32,000 nt of DNA from Moraxella nasovis (GCF_022701215.1 NZ_CP089976.1:1380001-1412000); one strand, 5' to 3'. Shown: positions 13,361-18,217, numbered from the stretch's first letter. Numbers and translations are program-made. Notes: generated from the letters alone by a model not told the origin.

Positions 13361-14191
13361 TCATTGTGGCTGTATGCCGATGTCAATACGATGAGCACCT
13401 GCCTTGGCGGTATTTAGATCAAATTCTGCTTTAATGCCGACACTCACCATACAATATAATGTGCTATATCCATCTGTAACATTGGTTTGAGGGTCCTGTC
13501 TTTCAATATATTTTTCATAGTCGCTTGGTAGATCGCTAGTAAAAAATTTTGAATAAAATTGACCTGCGGTGTTATTACTGCGATAAAAGGTAATGGTTGC
13601 CTTTCTGCCTTGTTCATCAATAATCTCGCCTTTGGCAATGTCATTACCCACGTTTGATGATTGTAGAGACGCATTATCATTCACAATAAACATTTGCGGA
13701 TTATTTCTTAGGTAATCTCGTATTCTAGTATGATGGGAGCGACATAGATTTTCTCTAAGGGCTTTTCTAGCGTTACCTGTGATGTCGCCTTTAAATAGCC
13801 CATAACTATAAAAATTATAGACATCACCAAGTGGTAGTCTAAAATCAGTTTTGCTGTTGTATTGCACACTGTTTGTGATGGCAGGGATATTGCTGCTTTG
13901 GCTGACGTCTATTTGGCTGGCTGTGATGTCGGCAGTGGCAGAAGCACCGCCTAATGAGATGGCACGCATAGGGACGATGTTTGTCTCGGTAAATCGTTTG
14001 ATGAGTGCTTGAGGGGCATTGTCAGCTTTACAAAAATAGATATTTTGATACTCTGGGTCGGCTGTATAGATAACCTGCAATACAGGGTCTATTTCTCTAG
14101 CTGTTTGATTGATACTAGGACAGCCTGCCCACGCCACAGACGTACCACCCATGATGGCAGCAGTGATAGACAGTTTGATGAGTGCGTGCAT
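13361..14191 (-). CDS. Hypothetical secreted protein or lipoprotein, last gene of the chaperone-usher-like operon (candidate adhesin or accessory)
   Basis: 276-aa ORF with AGGAA SD. The signal peptide ends in AWAGC, which could be a lipobox or an SPase I site. The sequence contains 4 Cys. The gene starts 42 bp after the usher-like gene. I recognise no family. Confidence 0.55.
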   Translation of the reverse strand: MHALIKLSITAAIMGGTSVAWAGCPSINQTAREIDPVLQVIYTADPEYQNIYFCKADNAPQALIKRFTETNIVPMRAISLGGASATADITASQIDVSQSSNIPAITNSVQYNSKTDFRLPLGDVYNFYSYGLFKGDITGNARKALRENLCRSHHTRIRDYLRNNPQMFIVNDNASLQSSNVGNDIAKGEIIDEQGRKATITFYRSNNTAGQFYSKFFTSDLPSDYEKYIERQDPQTNVTDGYSTLYCMVSVGIKAEFDLNTAKAGAHRIDIGIQPQ

Positions 14192-14233
14192 GATGTTTCC
14201 TGTATGTGCTTTTTGATTATTTTGGTGGTTTAT

Positions 14234-16825
14234 CTACTTGTCTGTGATGGTGTTAGGTGTATTAGTAGGCTGCATGACCACACCCAAGACATAATCATCG
14301 TGAATAAAAATATGCTTATCATCATAGCCTTTGGCACGTAAGACATAATCGCCATTTGCCAAACCATCTAATAAGAAATAACCATCATCATCGGCAGTGC
14401 TTTGGGCGATAAGTTTACCGTTTTGCCATACTTGAATGCTGGTATTTTTGCCAGTTATGCCACGAATACCATAGCTTTTGGCAAGTTTCCAGTTGATATA
14501 AGTGGGTATTTTGTCTTGGATTTGGACGATAGCGTTGGCAGGCAGGCTGTACTGAATGGGTAATGTACGCCCATCAAGACCAATGCGGTGTACGCCAGCT
14601 GGCAAATCTAGTGCGTAGGTGCTTTGGCGTTTACCTTCGGAGAGTGTATTGGCGACACGCAAATCATCACCTACATAAAAATAGCCTTGGCGTTGATTTA
14701 GATGCAGCCAACGAGCGTCTAATAAGTCAGGGTCTGGCTGCATGTACTGATGTAGGTCATTATCGTGGTTGATGGTGATGATGGCTTGCCCTGATGATGA
14801 ACCTGTGTATCTGCCAAATTTTGGGGGTTTGGCAGGGAGTTTGTAGCCGTCTAGTCGCACTCGTATGAACCAGCCGTTGTCTTGGGTGGTCTTTTGATAA
14901 TCTGCTGTGTGATAGGCATAATCTGTGCGTTGGCTGTGGCGGTTTTGGTGATAGCCTGCATTTAGCTCCACACCGTCTTTGATGTGGTATTGCCAATAGC
15001 CTTCTATGCCAAGGCGATTTGGTTTGTTTTGCCATGTTGCTTTTAGTGTCAAGTCTTGCCTGTTGGCAAAGTGATGGCGGACGCTCGCACTAAGCGATAA
15101 GCGATGTGGCTCTTGGTTTTTGGGGCGATAGATATACTCAATGCTTTGTTCTAAGGCGGTCTTGGCGTTAAGATGTTCTGATATGGAGAATATCTGTCTG
15201 TTTGGGTCAATGCTATATCGGTAGCTGTTTTTGATGATACCGCCTGCGTCTGTGTAGTTGGCATGATACCGCCAATAGCCGTCATTGCGTAGCTCTGTGC
15301 CATGCGTAAAGCGTGGGTTTGGCTTGGCATTGGCAAATAGACTTACTTTCTTATCGCTTTGGTGGATAGAGACATTTAGATTTGGCTTGGGCTGGTAATA
15401 GATGTTTGATGAGTGGTGTGTCTGCCCTTGTGTGCGGTTTAGGCGGTAATTGGCATGCCAGTTTTGACGATAATAGCTCATATCTAGCTGATGATTGCCA
15501 TTGCTTTGGTAGCTGACATCGATGTTGCTGTATTGGTTGGGGGCGATGTTCGTGCCAAGTCGCCAAAGCGTATCAGACCTTGTGCTGTTATTATCATTTG
15601 GGGCGTAGCGAACACCGCCAGTTAGGGCGATGTGATTGTTTAGACCATAAGCAAAATGACCATAAGCCATATTGCTGTCTTTATTTTTACCAAATTTATC
15701 CAAATCATCAAATACGCCAAGCTGACCTATGCCTGCCCCAAGCAGTAGCTCATCGGTTGCAACTCGGCTTGTGCGTTTCGCTAGTGAGATGGTGTCTGTG
15801 CGTACGGCAATCGGTGAAAATGGGTGTTCATAGATGGCAACTTGTATCAGACTTTGGCGGTTGATTTGCGTCATGTCTAAATTTAAAAATTCATAACGAC
15901 CATCTAGCAAGGTCTGCACTTTGGCAATAGGGCGACCATCTACCAAAAGCTCTGCCACGCCACCTGCGATACCCACGCCTTTGACGTGTACGAAATCTTG
16001 GTTGGCAGTCTCTAGCAGTGATTTGGTTGTGCCGTCCATAATGTCGCTAAGATGACGTTTGATGTTGGCATTGCTATATGCCACCGCAATGCCTGTTATT
16101 TCATCAAAGGCAGTTTGGGTGTTGCCCAAGCGAAGGGCGAATTTGTCATTGGCAGTTGTCCAGTAGGCGTTATTGATGGTTGCCTTTTGTTTATCATCTT
16201 TACTGACTTGCACGCCCCAGTTGCCATTTTTGGCATAGCCAAAAGCACTTAGGGTGCTATTGGTGTTAATGTGTGTGTTTGGGTGGTCGCTTGTACTATT
16301 GCGATTGCCATAGACACCCCCATCAAAGGACATACCTTGTATGCCAAATACAGCAGGCTTGTGGGTGATGATGTCTTGGTGGGTGGTGTTAGTGTCGGTG
16401 TCATTTGGGCTTTTGGCATACATTAGCACATCAATTTTTAAATCCGCTGGCACATAGCGTGCAAATACGCCAAGCTGTCTTAGGGTATCAAGACTGATGT
16501 AGTGGTCGTTTTGATGAGCGATGATAAGGCTTTTGTCTAAGGTCTTTTGACCAAGTACGCTGTCAAATTGCCAATCGTCCGCTTGCGTTCTTATGCTAGT
16601 AATGCCTAGTGTACTAAGCGATTGGGTGCTTAGATAATAGGCGTCATCATACTTAAGTATGTCAATATTGCCTTTGTCTTGACCATTGACACTAAGCCCT
16701 GCCAACTGCAACTGACTGCCATCGGCACGAGTAGAAGTACCGCCCACATCTGCAAAAGCGACATTCGCCTGTACGCCCAAGGCGATACATAAGATGGCAA
16801 GACTGCTGTATGATGGATTAGACAT
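14234..16825 (-). CDS. Usher-like outer-membrane protein (divergent fimbrial usher candidate)
   Basis: 863 aa with signal peptide ...VQANVAFA|D. An N-terminal segment of about 110 aa reads LAGLSVNGQDKGNIDIL...LSTLGI, followed by an aromatic/Gly-rich beta-barrel-like body. An inserted segment, VKGVGIAGGVAELLVDGRPIAKVQTLLDGRYEFLNLD...LIQVAIYE, resembles the usher plug-domain pattern. The C-terminal Ig/CarboxypepD_reg-like module reads DDDGYFLLDGLANGDYVLRAKG. Size and position between the chaperone-like and terminal genes fit an usher. This rests on pattern recognition only, with no HMM run. Confidence 0.55.
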   Translation of the reverse strand: MSNPSYSSLAILCIALGVQANVAFADVGGTSTRADGSQLQLAGLSVNGQDKGNIDILKYDDAYYLSTQSLSTLGITSIRTQADDWQFDSVLGQKTLDKSLIIAHQNDHYISLDTLRQLGVFARYVPADLKIDVLMYAKSPNDTDTNTTHQDIITHKPAVFGIQGMSFDGGVYGNRNSTSDHPNTHINTNSTLSAFGYAKNGNWGVQVSKDDKQKATINNAYWTTANDKFALRLGNTQTAFDEITGIAVAYSNANIKRHLSDIMDGTTKSLLETANQDFVHVKGVGIAGGVAELLVDGRPIAKVQTLLDGRYEFLNLDMTQINRQSLIQVAIYEHPFSPIAVRTDTISLAKRTSRVATDELLLGAGIGQLGVFDDLDKFGKNKDSNMAYGHFAYGLNNHIALTGGVRYAPNDNNSTRSDTLWRLGTNIAPNQYSNIDVSYQSNGNHQLDMSYYRQNWHANYRLNRTQGQTHHSSNIYYQPKPNLNVSIHQSDKKVSLFANAKPNPRFTHGTELRNDGYWRYHANYTDAGGIIKNSYRYSIDPNRQIFSISEHLNAKTALEQSIEYIYRPKNQEPHRLSLSASVRHHFANRQDLTLKATWQNKPNRLGIEGYWQYHIKDGVELNAGYHQNRHSQRTDYAYHTADYQKTTQDNGWFIRVRLDGYKLPAKPPKFGRYTGSSSGQAIITINHDNDLHQYMQPDPDLLDARWLHLNQRQGYFYVGDDLRVANTLSEGKRQSTYALDLPAGVHRIGLDGRTLPIQYSLPANAIVQIQDKIPTYINWKLAKSYGIRGITGKNTSIQVWQNGKLIAQSTADDDGYFLLDGLANGDYVLRAKGYDDKHIFIHDDYVLGVVMQPTNTPNTITDK

Positions 16826-17544: not shown

Positions 17545-17581
17545 ATTTTAGGTATGGTTGGTGCTTAGTAAGCCCTGCGTC

Positions 17582-18217
17582 TTATTTTGATGATAAAGTC
17601 AGCTTAAATGTGTCGGCTGATGTATAGACACCTGCTTTTTTGGCATTTGACAAATCTAGCACAAATTTAATATCGCCTTTGGTTGGCTCCCACTTAGATG
17701 GAAGTTCAATCTCTGCAGCAGTAGATGTAGTGGCATTTGAGGCTAATTTAACTTCGCTGGTGGTTAATGAGCCACCATTTGCTTCGTCTTTTCTGTGTTT
17801 TAGTGTGCTGTTGTCATTCTCAACTTTCATGCCAACTTTGCCACTGGTTGTGATTGAACGCACTGCCCATGAATCTTTTAGGGTAACGTTCATTTTGTTA
17901 CCTGCTGTGGCAAGTGGTGATACAGGATCAAGATCGCCTGTCACTTCGGTGCTGCCTGCATTGATTTCTTCGTCTTTTTGACCAGAGCCTGAAACAATAG
18001 CACGATTAACATTGTTATTTAAATTGATAACTGCATAATCCCAGTGATATAGTACCAACACTTCTGGAATGGTAACATAAAGCTGGGTATTACCTGTTAC
18101 AGGTGTTGCTTGTGCAGGGGTGTCATAGCTTGATAGGTCAGGGGTAGCAGCTGACGCAACGCTTGCAATACCTGCCAATGAGGCAGCAACAGCGATTTTT
18201 TTGATGATGTTTTGCAT
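17582..18217 (-). CDS. Secreted putative fimbrial/fibre subunit, first gene of the chaperone-usher-like operon
   Basis: 211 aa with GGAG SD and a clean signal peptide, AGIASVASA|ATP. The protein is Ser/Thr/Asn-rich and Cys-free. Its C-terminus, AGVYTSADTFKLTLSSK, resembles the terminal beta-strand motif of pilins. The assignment rests mostly on operon position. Confidence 0.45.
   Translation of the reverse strand: MQNIIKKIAVAASLAGIASVASAATPDLSSYDTPAQATPVTGNTQLYVTIPEVLVLYHWDYAVINLNNNVNRAIVSGSGQKDEEINAGSTEVTGDLDPVSPLATAGNKMNVTLKDSWAVRSITTSGKVGMKVENDNSTLKHRKDEANGGSLTTSEVKLASNATTSTAAEIELPSKWEPTKGDIKFVLDLSNAKKAGVYTSADTFKLTLSSK

Follow-up and report, generated by a model that had tools for sequence, protein, structure and literature searches.

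A divergent four-gene cassette of Moraxella nasovis pairs an usher homolog with a candidate single-domain chaperone

A stretch of 32,000 nucleotides from Moraxella nasovis (GCF_022701215.1 NZ_CP089976.1:1380001-1412000), here referred to as the window, carries a cassette of four genes (A, B, C, and D) that, judging from their sequences and from structural models, quite probably encodes a very divergent chaperone-usher-type fiber assembly system that operates through donor-strand complementation and exchange. Among the fiber-assembly machines of Gram-negative bacteria, chaperone-usher pili are understood best, and they serve as targets for drugs and vaccines. By profile comparison, the cassette is homologous to the chaperone-usher pathway, yet it lies outside the classical, alternative, and archaic families as their curated models define them. 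The predicted proteins also lack one feature that defines the chaperone-usher kind, which is a two-domain chaperone; to our knowledge, all studied chaperone-usher systems use one. The surprising feature of the cassette, and one that specialists would not expect, is this conserved one-domain chaperone, and the usher family to which C belongs is large and unnamed. We found no literature on this system. The four genes, with lengths in amino acids (aa) of their open reading frames (ORFs), are as follows.

17582-18217, minus strand: gene A, a 211-aa ORF; secreted, pilin-like candidate for the major subunit
16846-17418, minus strand: gene B, 190 aa from the ATG at 17418; candidate periplasmic chaperone with a single Ig domain
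14234-16825, minus strand: gene C, an 863-aa ORF; outer-membrane usher homolog
13361-14191, minus strand: gene D, a 276-aa secreted protein; candidate minor or tip subunit

The original prediction, which was made from the DNA sequence alone, had placed four co-oriented minus-strand genes here, and we confirmed all four ORFs at these coordinates. The peptides that it had cited (AGVYTSADTFKLTL and GVAELLVDGRPIAKVQTLLDGRYEFLNLD...VAIYE) were found in the translated ORFs. Its gaps of 20 bp between B and C and 42 bp between C and D were also correct, but its gap of 127 bp between A and B is obtained only if B begins at an alternative TTG start at 17454 (ORF 16846-17454, 202 aa). The recorded protein is the 190-aa ATG form, with which the gap is 163 bp, a small mismatch. 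By inspection, each of the four proteins has a signal-peptide-like N terminus.

To compare C with ushers, we aligned a C-family profile (118 sequences) by hhalign with the Escherichia coli K-12 ushers FimD, EcpC, HtrE, SfmD, YehB, and YraJ. The C family matched the six ushers with a probability of 98.2% (E = 6.1e-14) over 646 columns, while a control with reversed ushers reached 3.9%. This alignment confidently places residues 283-335 of window C on the plug of FimD (303-357), and it puts residues 693-830 on the FimD C-terminal domains CTD1/CTD2. The five classical ushers alone gave 96.8% (E = 2.4e-10), and EcpC alone gave 70% (E = 4e-5) in a match confined to the C-terminal region. We also looked by hhalign for likeness to a TonB-dependent receptor, LptD, or BamA, and none was found: FhuA scored 1.9%, LptD 0.2%, and BamA 1.3% against the C family. 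Next to 98.2% for the ushers, these scores led us to reject LptD and BamA as readings of C. At the profile level, then, the C family is homologous to ushers.

Structural comparison pointed the same way. In an AlphaFold model of C, secondary structure elements follow the usher order of an N-terminal domain, hairpins, a compact beta domain at residues 278-346, a long further run of hairpins, and two beta-sandwiches. When this low-confidence model was submitted to Foldseek, the top ten matches were all FimD or PapC (E = 4e-13 to 6e-8), and LptD, porins, and other barrels appeared only near 1e-3. The claim of the original prediction that the 863-aa protein is an usher is thus upheld both by profile homology, with plug on plug, and by FimD/PapC standing first in Foldseek. 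In layout, C runs from a signal peptide through an N-terminal domain (residues ~26-140) and a barrel that has a plug inserted to a C-terminal pair of beta-sandwich domains; the following parts could be located by alignment.

15788-15994, minus strand: plug-like domain of C, residues ~278-346 (GVGIAGGVAELLVDGRPIAKVQTLLDGRYEFLNLD...VAIYE), which falls on the FimD plug in hhalign
14261-14758, minus strand: the two C-terminal beta-sandwich domains of C, residues ~690-855, which fall on FimD CTD1/CTD2 and on the C-terminal region of EcpC

The plug-like domain is among the most conserved stretches of the C-family alignments and has the highest prediction confidence in the model (pLDDT ~77). The last domain of C is similar to CarboxypepD_reg and transthyretin-like folds, and residues 788-832 gave a Pfam CarboxypepD_reg/SdrD_B match that is weak in the window protein and strong in its relatives.

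Curated models see little else in these proteins. No Pfam or NCBIfam match of A, B, C, or D passed a family cut-off (window proteins, with PF00577 and the other models searched at E up to 1). A Pfam scan of ten C-family members returned only C-terminal CarboxypepD_reg-like domains and never PF00577, which was unmatched in the 16 C-family members scanned. Searches of the PDB with phmmer and with family hidden Markov models (HMMs) gave no match for A, B, or D and, for C, only the transthyretin/CarboxypepD_reg-like C-terminal domain. The original prediction had called the system too divergent to be placed in the known clades, and this agrees with the absence of any match to PF00577, PF00345/PF02753, PF00419, PF05229, PF14352, CooC_C, or TcfC. 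As a control, we scanned EcpC, an accepted alternative-pathway usher, which was also without PF00577 and had a weak CarboxypepD_reg match. Because EcpC misses PF00577 too, the invisibility of C to this model is no argument against C as an usher.

The B family consists of 45 sequences, each adjoining a C homolog. Aligned with seven E. coli PapD-like chaperones, it gave hhalign probabilities of 85.9-89.8% (E = 5e-6 to 2e-6; best 1.8e-6, over 129 columns), with window residues 63-168 on FimC 37-132; reversed chaperones reached at most 0.7%. The match to EcpB/EcpE was 81% (E = 1.2e-5). Window B matches no Pfam model, and 11 of 43 B-family members individually match Pfam PapD_N. In a long homolog from Nitrospinota, the PapD_N gathering score is reached and an NCBIfam pilus-chaperone model is weakly matched across both domains. 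P66, N85, P122, R136, and R140 are the five positions that never vary among the 45 sequences. P122 of window B aligns with EcpB Pro60, the D1-strand proline that PMC4654587 describes as the one residue invariant throughout the chaperone-usher superfamily.

On the strength of these alignments, the B family is homologous to chaperone domain 1, as the original prediction had proposed in assigning the 190-aa protein to the PapD domain-1 type, and domain 2 has been lost. Window B corresponds to PapD domain 1 only, and its C terminus lies at a G1-like strand (VKLGSQYFMPIVINV). Just past this strand, within one residue of the window B terminus, 28 B sequences also stop. They are of the Moraxella/Psychrobacter type (named genomes and closely similar metagenomic contigs), with one more distant metagenomic lineage. 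The 17 distant homologs run 93-142 residues further and so contain a second domain, ~120 aa in size. What had been described as a shortened chaperone is indeed short, and comparison of the 28 short with the 17 long homologs refines the shortening to complete loss of domain 2. Alongside the missing domain, the column of window Y151 holds Arg in 16 of the 17 long sequences and in none of the 28 short ones; in the hhalign alignment, it is two residues off EcpB Arg89. In archaic and alternative chaperones, Arg89 (EcpB/CsuC) and two domain-2 residues hold the subunit's C-terminal carboxylate in place (PMC4654587). We infer that the short-B branch has lost the whole of this two-domain anchor, with the exact residue equivalence putative. 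The retention of a single-domain B in 28 sequences from two genera, with five invariant residues, argues for selection.

Members of the A family (39-54 sequences, all annotated as "hypothetical") always adjoin B and C, and no Pfam family was found in 39 of them. Window A has, after its signal peptide, a strand of alternating hydrophobic residues (QLYVTIPEVLVLYHW), then a variable loop at residues 70-100 and a C-terminal motif AG-x-Y...FKLTL. Its AlphaFold2 model (pLDDT 75.6 overall and >90 for about half of the residues, which form the core) is an all-beta sandwich in which the loop at 70-100 is disordered. Nearly all of the best 35 Foldseek matches of this model are donor-strand-complemented fiber subunits, among them an archaeal bundling pilin, CfaB, CS17, Caf1, SafA, FimA, FimI, and the PapG pilin domain. 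The matches have E values of 1e-3 to 0.1, with nothing below 1e-3, and target TM scores of 0.3-0.5. The model is therefore suggestive only of a donor-strand pilin-type fold: the pilin-like character that the original prediction gave to A is supported insofar as the nearest folds are donor-strand pilins, but the matches are weak. Inspection of the alignments further showed that the N terminus of mature A is an alternating-hydrophobic strand (family consensus DFRVTLPEVLVLYHW) and that it is similar to the strand with which B ends (GSRYGLPIxIxV), sharing with it the pattern R-[YV]-x-L-P-x-x-[IL]. This likeness fits successive occupation of one groove, which the A N-terminal strand and the B C-terminal strand may take in turn.

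Two further secreted proteins are candidate subunits. In distant loci, a small protein here called X is encoded between A and B and is a paralog of A (hhalign 83.4%, E = 8.5e-6 over the C-terminal halves). The Moraxellaceae-type cassette has no X, and D follows the usher gene. D was found downstream of C in all Moraxella and Psychrobacter cassettes examined but is truncated in M. bovis. It has four conserved Cys residues and a pilin-like last strand (AKAGAHRIDIGIQ; aG-x-[YH]-x-h-x-h) and shares only this C-terminal motif with A. By hhalign, neither D versus X (10.9%) nor D versus A was significant, and no Pfam family passed the cut-off in D. The C-terminal motif and the gene position suggest that D is a minor or tip subunit. 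D is unlikely to be a lipoprotein, an option that the original prediction had offered, since its orthologs have N, R, or A ahead of the conserved Cys and so no consistent lipobox. In Psychrobacter phenylpyruvicus, two tandem D paralogs rather than one follow the usher gene (8960-10629 of locus L012).

Two putative expression signals accompany gene A, and a GGAG ribosome-binding site precedes its ATG.

18272-18299, minus strand: sigma-70-like promoter, TTGAAA-16 nt-TATAAT, ~55 nt upstream of A; a consensus match only (11/12)
17511-17548, minus strand: stem-loop with a 17-bp stem, 34 nt past the A stop codon, with a weak U tail (z = -3.85)

Terminator-like hairpins with U runs, unrelated in sequence, stand at the same place after A in four related loci. 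Hairpins after the major-subunit gene are known in the pap and fim operons and would favor an excess of subunit over machinery. The stem-loop of the window is a candidate attenuator or mRNA stabilizer between the subunit gene and the assembly genes. In M. caprae, a 9-nt unit (ACTTACCTA) occurs four times in tandem just past the end of A, before the hairpin (~5236-5268 of locus L009), where variation in copy number is possible.

Taken as a donor-strand fiber assembly system, the cassette would work as follows. A, the major subunit, and D, the minor or tip subunit, would be exported to the periplasm by Sec. There, B would capture A and D, probably by inserting its long C-terminal G1-like strand into the open beta-sandwich of the subunit (donor-strand complementation). 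The resulting B-subunit complexes would then reach C, an outer-membrane usher with its plug as gate, and dock on its periplasmic domains. There, the N-terminal strand of the next subunit would displace B (donor-strand exchange), and the growing fiber would be threaded through the C barrel to the cell surface. The hairpin downstream of A probably shifts production toward subunit relative to machinery. In this scheme, we infer polymerization and strand exchange, what D and the hairpin do, and a purpose in adhesion or biofilm formation.

Several points weigh against this assignment. The reference profiles for ushers and chaperones lack depth, with 5-7 E. coli sequences each, and of the single usher templates only YraJ and EcpC scored against the C family. 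The AlphaFold model of C, which was built from a six-sequence alignment, is poor (pLDDT 49, TM ~0.16), so that its fold match is one of local structure letters. Window A, B, and D and the C barrel go unrecognized by the curated models (Pfam, NCBIfam) and by the PDB sequence and HMM searches. A pilin-like fold of A has only sub-significant Foldseek E values behind it, and hhalign comparisons of A with E. coli pilins were non-significant, as were those of D and X. We also know of no studied precedent in the chaperone-usher pathway for a chaperone without domain 2. Its loss counts further in that two of the three carboxylate-anchor residues of archaic and alternative systems sit in that domain (PMC4654587).

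An alternative that keeps the same machinery changes its product: A and D would be exported as non-polymerizing proteins or as an amorphous Caf1/F1-like coat, not as a discrete pilus. We consider this unlikely. Caf1 is indeed among the best structure matches of A, the loop of A at 70-100 is long and variable, and we saw nothing that points to a rod-forming subunit. The long G1-like strand of B likewise recalls the chaperones of polyadhesin systems. However, Caf1-type coats are themselves donor-strand polymers, so the difference would be one of morphology only; the rod-forming subunits CfaB and CS17 match A equally well, and the presence of two distinct subunits (A with D or X) suggests a fiber with a specialized end.

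The A-B-C-D cassette was found again in more than 15 genomes at protein identities of 22-54%, and this recurrence indicates that the four genes are not chance ORFs. The additional loci were gathered by one genome scan, one metagenome scan (with a 10-sequence alignment), and context look-ups. Carriers include Psychrobacter lutiphocae, M. caprae, M. bovis, Moraxella sp. Pampa, and about ten Psychrobacter species, together with one further assembly and several metagenome-assembled genomes. Identity to the window proteins is 32-43% for A, 35-54% for B, 26-43% for C, and 22-30% for D, and a word-indexed search of 5.8 billion proteins returned only five other relatives of C. In every intact locus examined, the genes are clustered and co-oriented in the order A-B-C-D or A-X-B-C.

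Some copies are decaying, which raises the alternative that the cassette is a relic without current function in M. nasovis. In M. bovis (loci L004-L006 and L011; ~8568-11750 in L004), the usher gene is broken up into four or more ORFs and D is truncated, and in one strain (L005) an IS1 transposase replaces the distal part of the cassette. B, moreover, has lost a domain. The M. caprae cassette is intact, unlike its decaying M. bovis ortholog, and none of the four window ORFs is broken; signal peptides are encoded, and both a strong promoter-like site and a ribosome-binding site are present. Combined with the conservation of the single-domain B described above, these features make a relic improbable.

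The system is not peculiar to the Moraxella/Psychrobacter lineage but is part of a broad, unnamed family. A search with an HMM of six C sequences against clusters at 50% identity gave 776 matches at E ≤ 1e-3, 314 at ≤ 1e-10, and 93 at ≤ 1e-30. The best 150 of these clusters are mostly ~850 aa long; the remainder are fragments or giant proteins, the latter aligning solely via C-terminal-domain repeats. From Moraxellaceae to Nitrospinota and Alphaproteobacteria, subunit, chaperone, and usher have stayed together, and outside Moraxellaceae the usual architecture is A-X-B-C, with a two-domain B.

Within this family, the NCBI name of the P. lutiphocae C homolog (P0005; 8001-11036 of locus L001) is "TonB-dependent receptor," apparently an erroneous label prompted by its CarboxypepD_reg-like domain. 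The corresponding alternative, in which C would be a transporter of the outer membrane (a TonB-dependent receptor, for example) and A, B, and D would be unrelated periplasmic or surface binding proteins, draws on this name and on a domain that SusC-type receptors also have, and it is hardly credible, given that the domain is C-terminal in C rather than N-terminal and that the accepted usher EcpC matches it weakly as well, that the TonB-receptor Pfam families (Plug, TonB_dep_Rec) were unmatched in the 16 C-family members, and that ushers stand far ahead of FhuA in hhalign and, by seven or more orders of magnitude, of other barrels in Foldseek.

We compared the donor-strand system proposed here with the known chaperone-usher families. 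With classical systems (Fim, Pap), it has in common a subunit, a periplasmic Ig chaperone, an ~850-aa usher, and an extra subunit, encoded in subunit-first order. The usher domain order NTD-barrel(plug)-CTD1-CTD2 is the same, with profile homology over ~650 columns; chaperone domain 1 is homologous to B, and a hairpin follows the major-subunit gene in both. In contrast, C is only ~12% identical to FimD and has a last domain that looks like CarboxypepD_reg, the chaperone is without domain 2, and A is without a FimA-type sequence signal. No member reaches PF00577 or PF00419 (39 A members for the latter), and window B is without PF00345 and PF02753.

Alternative systems (CFA/I, CS1, ECP) are likewise invisible to PF00577, and the EcpC control matched only CooC_C, TcfC, and, weakly, CarboxypepD_reg. 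The C-terminal region of C aligns with EcpC and B aligns with EcpB/EcpE, CfaB and CS17 are near the fold of A, and the Arg of the long B homologs is within two aligned residues of EcpB/CsuC Arg89; window B lacks both this Arg and domain 2. For the barrel of C, however, classical ushers give a better alignment than EcpC does, and CooC_C (PF15976), TcfC (PF16967), and EcpB_C (PF18649) were unmatched in the C and B families scanned, as was MatB. EcpC and EcpB, used as model controls, strongly match the alternative-family models that the C and B families miss.

With archaic (sigma) systems such as Csu and CupE, the cassette shares a small operon and a tip-subunit gene (here the candidate D) after the usher gene. 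Archaic ushers are covered by PF00577, which was unmatched in the usher here, and SCPU (PF05229) was unmatched in the A, X, and D proteins scanned; this comparison is by Pfam models alone. In taxonomic breadth, the family described here is similar to the archaic systems, which are distributed beyond beta- and gammaproteobacteria (PMC4654587).

DUF4402 (PF14352) clusters of Alphaproteobacteria are a fourth point of comparison. The C and B profiles found in them outer-membrane proteins of ~850-900 aa and periplasmic proteins of ~250-280 aa, and the large protein shares the CarboxypepD_reg-like C terminus of C and has partial usher similarity (tblastn E = 2e-7 and 2e-4). True DUF4402 proteins (E = 3e-23 to 3e-42) are encoded directly upstream of distant B-like and C-like genes in an uncultured metagenome-assembled genome and in Altererythrobacter (3061-4448 of locus L025 and 2256-2843 of L026), and one of them is a tandem double DUF4402 domain. 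DUF4402, which the original prediction had listed among the families to be searched, is thus not the family of A, and neither X nor D belongs to it (A family versus DUF4402-like neighbors, hhalign 5.9%), but true DUF4402 genes do adjoin distantly related counterparts of this usher and chaperone. DUF4402 proteins are probably fiber subunits of a related usher system; we found no mention of DUF4402 in the library of papers searched.

A wider proposal, on which we are evenly divided, is that the family is a fourth deep chaperone-usher lineage beside the classical, alternative, and archaic ones, with its own usher, chaperone, and pilin families outside Pfam and NCBIfam, hundreds of clusters in several phyla, and a branch (Moraxella, Psychrobacter, and a few metagenomic contigs) in which a one-Ig-domain, Arg-less chaperone assembles fibers. 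If this branch does so, chaperone domain 2 can be dispensed with both in donor-strand complementation and in passing subunits on to the usher. A one-domain chaperone that is natural and conserved would then amount to a minimal system, one that would permit a direct test of the features needed for donor-strand complementation and usher docking. The comparison also offers a working annotation for a large unnamed family whose members are now called "hypothetical" or, once, "TonB-dependent receptor," and gives the DUF4402 clusters a likely function. Moraxella and Psychrobacter are better known for type IV pili, and the cassette would be a possible second adhesin system in both genera.

The surroundings of the cassette are as the original prediction described them, with a katG-like two-domain peroxidase gene and a gene for an IscX-type Fe-S_assembly protein as flanks; an M20 peptidase gene is also among them. 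A repeat check and the ORF list revealed no meaningful repeat or mobility gene at the borders, again as predicted, and no marked break in GC content or composition was seen at the cassette within the window. The structure of the locus therefore gives no support to an island origin. The genomic neighborhood of the cassette varies between genera, and the differing neighborhoods in other genomes are a mere hint of such an origin. In P. lutiphocae, a 74-aa Cas12f1-like_TNB (TnpB-type) fragment lies ~3 kb upstream of the cassette (3259-3483 of locus L001) and is the sole mobility-related trace near any intact copy. Elsewhere in the window, a 155-aa ORF beside the M20 peptidase gene (20099-20566, minus strand) had no Pfam match at E ≤ 1e-5. 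Positions 23735-29196 hold a complete rRNA operon (16S, two tRNAs, 23S, and 5S), in which the 23S match is 3169 nt long against a 2925-nt model and may contain ~240 nt of insertions or an intervening sequence.

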